Source of the DNA: an uncultured Thermoanaerobaculia bacterium
GTDB taxonomy: Bacteria; Acidobacteriota; Thermoanaerobaculia; Multivoradales; Multivoraceae
Assembly (NCBI GenBank): GCA_951812325.1
Contig: OX638294.1
Coordinates: 1,675,772 to 1,739,771 of the forward strand
Length of the DNA stretch: 64,000 nucleotides
Direction: 5' to 3'
In this document: positions 47,868-48,199 of the stretch, piece after piece
Position numbering within the stretch: the stretch's first letter is position 1
Layout of the letters: each line of letters begins with the position of its first letter
Made by a program: the position numbers and the translations under genes
Notes under the pieces: model-generated
Database searches by the model: none
Seen by the model: the letters and a program-made list of their open reading frames with translations, nothing else
Told to the model about the DNA's origin: nothing

Positions 47868-47902
47868 AATGTTCGTGGTGCAACGGATGCTCTGTCCTAT
47901 GG
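47868..47902 (+). promoter_or_regulatory. Predicted Cascade binding site: AAT PAM plus protospacer for the mini-array spacer
   Basis: 22/32 identity to 48140-48171, with mismatches at 6, 9, 12, 18, 23, 24, 25, 28, 30 and 32. Confidence 0.8.
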
Positions 47903-48015
47903 TTGGGTGGCTGGCGACGGGCACAGCGACGTGCTGTGCACCTCCCACTCTGAAATCAAGAACTGCCGTAGTGACCCGTGGTCCAAGGTCAAGACGCATC
48001 GAGGAACGAAGGTGA
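47869..48015 (+). CDS. Possible 48-aa leader/mini ORF (MFVVQRMLCP...RSRRIEERR)
   Basis: Strong SD GAGGGAGGG before ATG 47869; no recognisable homology. Confidence 0.3.
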   Translation: MFVVQRMLCPMVGWLATGTATCCAPPTLKSRTAVVTRGPRSRRIEERR

Positions 48016-48055
48016 GACGCCGGTTTCGAATCCGGTCGGGGTCACTACGCAGTTC
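47960..48055 (+). ncRNA. tRNA-like structured RNA on an extended stem
   Basis: 17-bp closing stem with one bulge; D-arm GTCCAAGGTCAAGAC; T-arm GCCGG-TTTCGAAT-CCGGT; non-canonical anticodon loop; no CCA. Confidence 0.7.
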
Positions 48056-48110
48056 AAGCATCTGCTGTACAGCGACGAAGGGCAACACCGCAACAACCAA
48101 GAATGACTCA

Positions 48111-48199
48111 ACGCCTCCGAACCCATCGGAGATAGACCTGTTCGGGGAGCTACGGACGCTCCCGCCAAGGTTGCGACCCCGCCCTAGCGGGGAAAGCGC
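48111..48199 (+). CRISPR. Cryptic one-spacer mini-array (degenerate repeat, 33 nt, degenerate repeat)
   Basis: PsiR1 ACGCCTCCGAACCCATCGGAGATAGACC and PsiR2 TGCGACCCCGCCCTAGCGGGGAAAGCGC, in the same 61-bp register as the main array. Confidence 0.85.

Follow-up and report, generated by a model that had tools for sequence, protein, structure and literature searches.

A probable CreR-type regulatory mini-CRISPR in the 5' leader of a type I-E Cascade operon from an uncultured Thermoanaerobaculia bacterium

In Salmonella enterica, the effector genes of the type I-E CRISPR system are under the control of CreR, which represses the casA promoter and whose effect is relieved by an excess of CRISPR RNA (crRNA) or by AcrIE8 (Liu et al., bioRxiv 10.1101/2023.03.10.532045). 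In a survey of 3741 type I-E loci, about 19% were reported to carry regulatory mini-arrays with targets in cas8 promoters (Shmakov et al., PMC10120712). Here, we describe such an element in a stretch of 64,000 nucleotides (the window; positions 1,675,772 to 1,739,771 of contig OX638294.1, GenBank assembly GCA_951812325.1) from an uncultured Thermoanaerobaculia bacterium of the Acidobacteriota. The plus strand of the window encodes a type I-E CRISPR-Cas locus that is complete, and the 416-nt gap between its cas3 and cas8e genes holds both a degenerate repeat-spacer-repeat unit and a site that partly matches the spacer. As judged from the sequence of this locus and of its relatives, the unit is very probably a CreR-type regulatory mini-CRISPR in the 5' leader of the Cascade operon.

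In Salmonella as well as here, a degenerate mini-CRISPR lies beside the Cascade genes, its first repeat (PsiR1) retains the part that gives the 5' handle and its second (PsiR2) the part that gives the 3' hairpin, the spacer has a partial match in the promoter region of casA/cas8e at a site flanked by a protospacer-adjacent motif (PAM), and autorepression by Cascade, relieved by crRNA excess or anti-CRISPRs, is to be expected (bioRxiv 10.1101/2023.03.10.532045). The Salmonella match is an unbroken run of 15 nt flanked by AAG; it is situated about 140 bp upstream of casA and was studied with reporter assays and with CreR supplied in trans; here, in contrast, the match extends over about 22 nt, is broken at every sixth base, and stands behind AAT (A-A/G-T/C in the family). 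Furthermore, guide and target here share one orientation, with the guide on the downstream side; for the Salmonella gene, the orientation is not given in the text consulted. The mini-arrays of types I-E and I-F1 reported by Shmakov et al. (PMC10120712) share with this locus the position in the cas3-cas8 region, the partial match to the cas8 promoter, and the mismatches at sixth positions. Their Escherichia coli example is described as being transcribed opposite to cas3 and as having its target downstream of the mini-array behind an AAG PAM (PMC10120712); here, the mini-array points the same way as cas3 and cas8e, is placed within the leader of the genes that would be controlled, and has its target on the upstream side. 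CreTA of the type I-B system of Haloarcula hispanica and its relatives likewise relies on a crRNA-like RNA from degenerate repeats, which directs Cascade to a promoter that is repressed by way of partial complementarity and is not cleaved; CreA guards the toxin RNA CreT (PMC8501985, PMC9458426). The promoter expected to be repressed here, on the other hand, drives the cas operon. A further parallel is tracr-L of Cas9, which belongs to a type II system with a single effector protein and in which the guide is an isoform of the trans-activating crRNA, not a mini-array. It has in common with this locus that a non-canonical guide makes the effector repress its own promoter (cited in bioRxiv 10.1101/2023.03.10.532045).

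An earlier note on this DNA, made from the sequence alone, had described the two repeats, their hairpins, a 28+33+28 register, and a distance of 12 nt between the end of PsiR2 and the cas8e ATG, all of which were reproduced with the same coordinates (Table 1). The starts of PsiR1 and PsiR2 are 61 nt apart, which is also the period of the CRISPR array downstream. The 6-bp hairpin of PsiR1 (CTCCGA-ACCCA-TCGGAG) ends where the stem of a canonical repeat ends, and both Psi hairpins are present in the minimum-energy fold of 48100-48215. Across the 4.63-Mb genome of the window (G000), 15 other plus-strand pairs of sites with at least 16/28 identity occur at 61-nt spacing, compared with about 6.7 expected; by arithmetic, such a pair is expected about 6e-4 times in the 416-nt intergenic region. 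The Psi repeats are convincing by their place, hairpins, handle, and conservation, not by percent identity. As in a CreR mini-array, the repeat-spacer-repeat unit is degenerate and stands in the array register between cas3 and cas8e. It departs from a canonical array in its degenerate repeats and in a spacer that is conserved and covaries with a site of the host over 14 guide clusters.

The match between guide and target reported in the earlier note was recovered in full, as were the AAT flank, whose T equals base 48139 (the first after PsiR1), and the TTGACA/TAGAGT promoter about 30 bp upstream. The mismatches fall at positions 6, 9, 12, 18, 23, 24, 25, 28, 30, and 32 and thus include all five sixth positions, for which chance would give a probability of C(27,5)/C(32,10) = 0.00125 (a post hoc calculation). 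When every site of the genome was scored at the 19 non-sixth positions of guide bases 1-22, the target was the best non-self site of 9.27 million with 18 matches, followed by one site with 17 (flanked by CCC) and eight with 16. In other words, the best match to the guide in the whole genome lies 269 nt upstream of it, on the same strand and behind an A-rich flank. The complementarity is PAM-proximal and partial, the matched site carries a putative PAM and stands at the effector promoter, and the same arrangement is found in 26 relatives. The promoter-like site is the sole one in 47500-48500 and ends 30 nt before the target; a second promoter for the guide was not found in this interval.

Within the genus, the leader (47960-48211) was searched in 42 genomes and matched in seven, and guide and target were aligned in six of them (G000 and five relatives). 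In all six, PsiR1, guide, and PsiR2 stand directly before cas8e, and an upstream plus-strand site matches 16-18 of the first 20 guide bases. Thirteen of the 15 mismatches in these six pairs are at positions 6, 12, or 18, and the changes that the guide has undergone between lineages at positions 3, 4, 13, and 20 are each mirrored by the same change in the target. Two genomes have a guide that is shorter by exactly 12 nt. The target of the five relatives abuts or overlaps a -10 box (TAGTGT, CATAGT, or TATTGT), which in three of the five is preceded, 17-18 nt upstream, by a clear TTGAC-type -35 element that immediately follows the stop codon of cas3. G000 has the homologous promoter, but its target lies 30 nt further on.

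A wider family was assembled from an alignment of seven Cas8e proteins of the genus, which led to 80 loci from genome contigs, and a mini-array was called where a handle-plus-hairpin unit occurs no more than 170 nt from cas8e. A recognizable mini-array was found in 27 of the 80 loci, and 26 of these 27 have a plus-strand upstream target that matches the guide at 13-17 of 17 non-sixth positions, with second-best sites scoring 11-13. The remaining one (L021) has no target above background (12/17) and was excluded from the counts of mismatch pattern, unmasked search, covariation, and Psi hairpins given below. Five loci (L010, L011, L012, L013, and L015) correspond by their coordinates to same-genus genomes (G034, G005, G014, G010, and G001, respectively) and were counted once. 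The 26 loci come from genomes labeled Thermoanaerobaculia and Candidatus Multivorans, Vicinamibacterales, Terriglobia, Bryobacterales, Latescibacterota, Longimicrobiales and Gemmatimonadota, Spirochaetia, Rhodobacterales, Pseudohongiella, and Candidatus Foliamicus. In G000 and these 26 loci (27 in total), the hairpin CCCCGC-N4-GCGGGG of PsiR2 is always present, is followed by a degenerate tail, and lies 18-44 nt before the cas8e start, while 23 of the 27 have a perfect PsiR1 hairpin that ends at the handle and whose stem varies by compensated changes (CTCCGA/TCGGAG, CCCCGC/GCGGGG, CCCCG/CGGGG, and others). The three bases before the target are AAT (9), AAC (9), AGT (6), ATT (1), AGC (1), or ATG (1), giving the motif A-A/G-T/C, with which the -10 hexamer often ends as its 3' half. 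The -10 boxes follow a TTGAC-type -35 element and are separated from the target by -2 to 30 nt (loci without a good site in a simple promoter search were set aside).

Positions 6, 12, and 18 account for 68 mismatches in 81 cells over the 27 loci, compared with 31 in 405 for the other positions of 1-18; with one representative for each of the 14 guide clusters, the figures are 33/42 and 18/210. Most cells at positions 23-32 are mismatched; in every cluster, pairing stops around position 22. The earlier note had proposed a CreA/CreR-like reading and had named covariation of guide and target in homologous leaders as a check on it. Such covariation is present: cognate pairs agree at 13.85 of 15 non-sixth positions on average, as opposed to 6.40 of 15 for guides paired with targets from other clusters, and a score of 13 is reached by only 0.15% of the 650 non-cognate pairs. 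The clusters differ in the matched base at most paired positions, where two to four alternatives are seen. The reading is also supported by the seven same-genus genomes that carry the element and by 26 of the 27 mini-array loci of the family, which combine the unit before cas8e with a PAM-flanked, promoter-proximal match on the plus strand. Type I Cascade flips out every sixth base of the guide, as stated for related systems in PMC10120712. The mismatch pattern is hence what would be expected of a site read by type I Cascade, and it is also the pattern that would be expected of a site selected for a partial R-loop only.

The guides fall into three length classes without intermediates: seven loci have guides of 19-20 nt, 17 loci (G000 among them) have guides of 31-33 nt, and three loci have guides of 44 nt. 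A step of 12 nt equals two Cas7 steps and, in the Cascade structure, one Cse2. Pairing ends near position 22 regardless of the length of the guide.

Table 1. Features of the cas3-cas8e gap and of the surrounding type I-E locus (coordinates of the window).
Feature	Coordinates	Strand	Remarks
cas3	45171..47795	+	Pfam Cas3_HD, DEAD, Cas3-like_C_2
Promoter-like site TTGACA-18-TAGAGT	47811..47840	+	10/12 sigma-70-like match; aligns with the TTGAC-type promoters of relatives
AAT, putative PAM	47868..47870	+	Flank of target; deduced from comparison of 27 loci
Target (protospacer-like site)	47871..47902	+	Pairing part 47871-47892; 22/32 with guide; 18/19 at non-sixth positions of 1-22
tRNA-Cys-like cloverleaf	47970..48047	+	Within a longer helix (about 47960-48055), between target and mini-array
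PsiR1	48111..48138	+	16/28 versus array repeat; hairpin 48115-48131, then ATAGACC 48132-48138 (predicted future 5' handle)
Predicted mature CreR-like RNA, 61 nt	48132..48192	+	From the repeat register and known type I-E Cas6e cleavage after each PsiR stem
Guide (PsiS), 32 nt	48140..48171	+	Sequence, genome-wide match, covariation
PsiR2	48172..48199	+	18/28 versus array repeat; hairpin CCCCGC-CCTA-GCGGGG 48177-48192, then A; 3' part degenerate
cas8e (cse1), first gene of the putatively repressed operon	48212..49795	+	Pfam CRISPR_Cse1; ATG at 48212
cse2, cas7, cas5, cas6e (52151-52966), cas1, cas2	49542..54164	+	Pfam CRISPR_Cse2, Cas_CT1975, Cas_Cas5d, CRISPR_assoc, Cas_Cas1, Cas_Cas2CT1978
CRISPR array, 75 repeats, 61-nt period	54295..58897	+	Supplies crRNAs that would compete with the guide

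Taken together with the published CreR work, these observations suggest the following circuit. Transcription would start from the TTGACA/TAGAGT promoter just after cas3 and run through the target, the tRNA-like element, and PsiR1-guide-PsiR2 into cas8e-cse2-cas7-cas5-cas6e-cas1-cas2. Because the guide lies downstream of the target in the same orientation and PsiR2 precedes the cas8e ATG, the guide would be made from the very transcript that it represses. Cas6e is expected to cut after both Psi hairpins and thereby to release the 61-nt crRNA-like RNA, whose 5' handle (AUAGACCU) and 3' hairpin would both be normal; the cuts would leave cas8e with a 19-nt leader that includes its ribosome-binding site (GAAGG at 48200-48204). 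Cascade loaded with this guide would then bind the AAT-flanked site at 47871, where the guide would pair with about 22 nt of the template strand and each sixth base would be flipped out. Since pairing stops near position 22, the R-loop would presumably stay incomplete and Cas3 would not be licensed. The bound complex would instead block RNA polymerase about 30 nt after the -10 box, resulting in negative feedback on both Cascade and the guide, and this feedback should be loosened by the 75-spacer array, through competition for Cas proteins, or by anti-CRISPRs. The cas3 gene is located upstream of the regulated promoter and is therefore probably outside the control of the circuit.

Several points weigh against this interpretation. 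The guide contains a 6-bp hairpin of its own, which also appears in the minimum-energy fold of 48100-48215, and the raw identity of the Psi repeats to the array repeat is not rare across the genome. The targets of the wider family were first located with the sixth positions masked, so that the contrast between sixth and other positions is somewhat inflated; a repetition of the search without masking placed the same site at the top in 25 of the 26 loci. Several distant loci match at 13 of 18 positions, which is barely above the best chance match of 11-13 of 18 in shuffles, and these loci are convincing only via position, strand, and PAM. The base after the 28-nt array repeat is C in 62 of the 75 repeats, T in 7, and G in 6; because the array thus hints at C at position -1, AAT may be a weak PAM. 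Moreover, the distance of 30 nt between the -10 box and the target in G000 is the largest of the family, and repression would take the form of an elongation roadblock rather than promoter occlusion. Finally, the processing of the guide, its binding, the repression, and the sensing of crRNA load or anti-CRISPRs are steps that we infer, with processing, repression, and sensing being carried over from the published CreR work (bioRxiv 10.1101/2023.03.10.532045).

A few further observations concern the segment around the target and the sequences resembling the guide. Between the -10 box and the target (47841-47870), a strong ribosome-binding-like run (GAGGGAGGG) is found, and an ATG at 47869, which overlaps the PAM, begins a frame of 48 codons whose end falls within the tRNA-like element. 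This frame was considered as a candidate gene and rejected for not being conserved in the same-genus relatives, as was the long open frame 47838-48227 on the same grounds. The segment 47841-47865 directly after the -10 box faintly resembles the target of the relatives, which hints at a local duplication or rearrangement. A comparison of the array with a phage collection, aimed at the PAM, gave only two 29-nt matches (E 0.4, Gordonia phages), which were taken as chance. Phage mimics of the guide were sought as well: TCGGAGATWGACCYGT gave 40 stretches in viral contigs, of which none has a PsiR2-like hairpin behind it or, as inspected by eye, a PsiR1 hairpin in front of it, and these matches were treated as chance.

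Between the target and the mini-array, the leader contains the tRNA-Cys-like cloverleaf, whose fold has a z-score of -3.1. RNAalifold recovers the cloverleaf from ten aligned copies with 19 pairs, five of which show compensated changes. The covariance model R1 built for it gives 81.8 bits to the copy in the window and 55.8 bits to the next best hit, the tRNA-Cys of the genome. With this model, 10 of the 80 loci were seen to have a copy upstream of cas8e (L010, L011, L012, L013, L015, L018, L020, L022, L028, and L056), 200-330 nt before the gene. A scan of 150 further genomes of the phylum gave no copy with E up to 1e-13. The cloverleaf comes in addition to the 55 ordinary tRNAs of the genome. 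A tRNA gene would have an anticodon loop of 7 nt and be recognized by tRNA finders or Rfam; the anticodon-like loop of 47970-48047 and of the same-genus copies measures 10 nt, ARAGORN calls no tRNA in the window or in six same-genus loci, and Rfam reports no family at its gathering score in the window and none at E up to 1 in the six loci. In three distant loci, ARAGORN does call a tRNA-Ala(tgc). The term tRNA-like does not occur in five published papers on mini-arrays. The cloverleaf may serve as a processing signal, it may be a cargo under guard, or it may be left over from a borrowed tRNA promoter unit.

Just upstream of the cloverleaf, nine loci (L010-L013, L015, L018, L020, L022, and L056) have a strong GC hairpin with compensated changes (for example GCCCGCCGAGG...CCTCGGCGGGC). 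It is preceded in L018, L020, and L022 by an A-run and, on the minus strand, would read as an intrinsic terminator. G000, with a leader about 130 nt shorter, lacks this hairpin. In one genome of Candidatus Multivorans (L056 2700-2760, L009), a part of the D-arm of the cloverleaf (CCCGTCGTCTAAGGTCAAGACCCGCGG) occurs three times in tandem.

In 17 loci without the cloverleaf (L029, L032-L037, L039, L042, L044, L046, L048, L050, L051, L053, L057, and L060), there is a frame of 43-92 codons that has a ribosome-binding site, begins 50-120 nt past the target, and traverses PsiR1, guide, and PsiR2. Its stop lies between 2 nt before and 11 nt after the first base of the cas8e ATG in 15 of the 17 loci, and 13-17 nt after that base in the other two. 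The encoded peptides align poorly between clusters, and in all 17 loci no Pfam family is matched at E up to 1 except for two sub-threshold matches. It may be the translation of this frame and not its product that matters, and the frame may serve as a leader frame that couples translation to cas8e or competes with cleavage by Cas6e. G000 has no conserved counterpart of it.

A bolder reading takes the cloverleaf as a working part of the circuit, not as a relic, be it as a tRNA-mimic cargo (a CreT-like RNA toxin or decoy) or as a mark for RNase P/Z, and groups it with guides of 20, 32, and 44 nt, which would reflect steps of two Cas7 subunits plus one Cse2 subunit, into a distinct and horizontally spread module family. 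We regard this as rather unlikely. If it were true, a tRNA-mimic cargo would be set free upon loss of Cascade or its inhibition by an anti-CRISPR, or else punctuation by RNase P/Z would decide what becomes of the leader and of the guide precursor.

The closest competitor of a CreR-type regulator is an addiction module of the CreTA kind, which could exist instead of the regulator or besides it and in which the repressed promoter would drive a toxic cargo, namely the tRNA-Cys-like RNA; loss or inhibition of Cascade would then release the cargo and harm the cell. Such a module is compatible with the finding that the 110-445 nt between target and guide are always filled by something conserved, either the cloverleaf (10 of the 80 loci and G000) or the short frame with its ribosome-binding site (17 other loci), and with a conserved tRNA-like RNA that exceeds the full set of 55 tRNAs and has no comparable score in the 150 phylum genomes. 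G000 lacks a short frame whose start is followed by tandem rare codons, the hallmark of CreT. Furthermore, tRNA genes are co-transcribed with protein genes without any toxin role, for example in the tufB operon of E. coli. CreT toxins are indeed small RNAs under CreA-repressed promoters (PMC8501985), but the promoter in question here also drives the cas genes, and autorepression of cas alone explains the target. On balance, an addiction module appears improbable.

It is very improbable that the unit is a non-functional remnant, that is, the decaying end of an array or a duplicated repeat-spacer, with a promoter match that arose by chance or is left over from a self-targeting spacer. The low identity of the repeats and the occurrence of similar pairs elsewhere in the genome would fit a remnant. 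Against it stand the conservation of the unit, of its place before cas8e, and of the target over 14 guide clusters from metagenome-assembled genomes labeled Thermoanaerobaculia to Spirochaetia, the covariation of guide and target, the maintenance of both hairpins by compensated changes, and the rank of the target as best non-self match in the genome. Hardly credible is a protein-coding repeat in which target and guide would both encode V-R-G-A-T-D-A and the mismatches would be third-codon wobble: the frame 47838-48227 is open through both (the listed open reading frame being 47907-48227) and positions 6, 12, and 18 are third codon positions in it, but the equally third positions 3, 9, and 15 are mismatched in only 3, 5, and 1 of the 27 loci compared with 24, 21, and 23 at 6, 12, and 18, target positions 4-6 of the relative G005 read TGA in this frame, the frames of the same-genus genomes stop at different places, and a convincing start codon or ribosome-binding site is missing.

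The locus around the putative CreR-type mini-CRISPR is that of a complete type I-E system, with all genes, including Cas6e, scoring above the curated Pfam cut-offs. An orphan array of two identical repeats and one 32-nt spacer is located at G000:C1:1674344-1674432, which is about 1.4 kb ahead of where the window begins; its repeat is type I-E-like, ends in GATGAACCG, and differs from that of the main array. The start of cas3 is overlapped by a 277-codon open frame (44347-45180, plus strand) without a Pfam match, which may be spurious in such GC-rich DNA. Toward the end of the window (63727-63996), a 135-nt unit occurs in two tandem copies that are 86% alike.

The principle of the circuit has already been published for type I-E, and the present locus adds a case rather than a new principle. 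The position of the guide inside the transcript that it would repress, the 12-nt steps of guide length, and the conserved tRNA-Cys-like cloverleaf were not met with in the texts of the published accounts consulted, the supplementary listings of which may hold such loci. With the circuit as proposed, autoregulation of type I-E systems by crRNA-like RNAs would extend to uncultured Acidobacteriota and to several lineages represented only by metagenomes. The evolutionary evidence is unusually clean, as guide and target change jointly and only the sixth positions are free, so that the structural signature of Cascade can be seen in natural variation. The 12-nt steps and the tRNA-like or short-frame cargo raise new questions about how such circuits are constructed. 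In having promoter, target, guide, and effector genes on one transcript, the locus would represent a compact natural design and thus a candidate for a self-limiting expression cassette.

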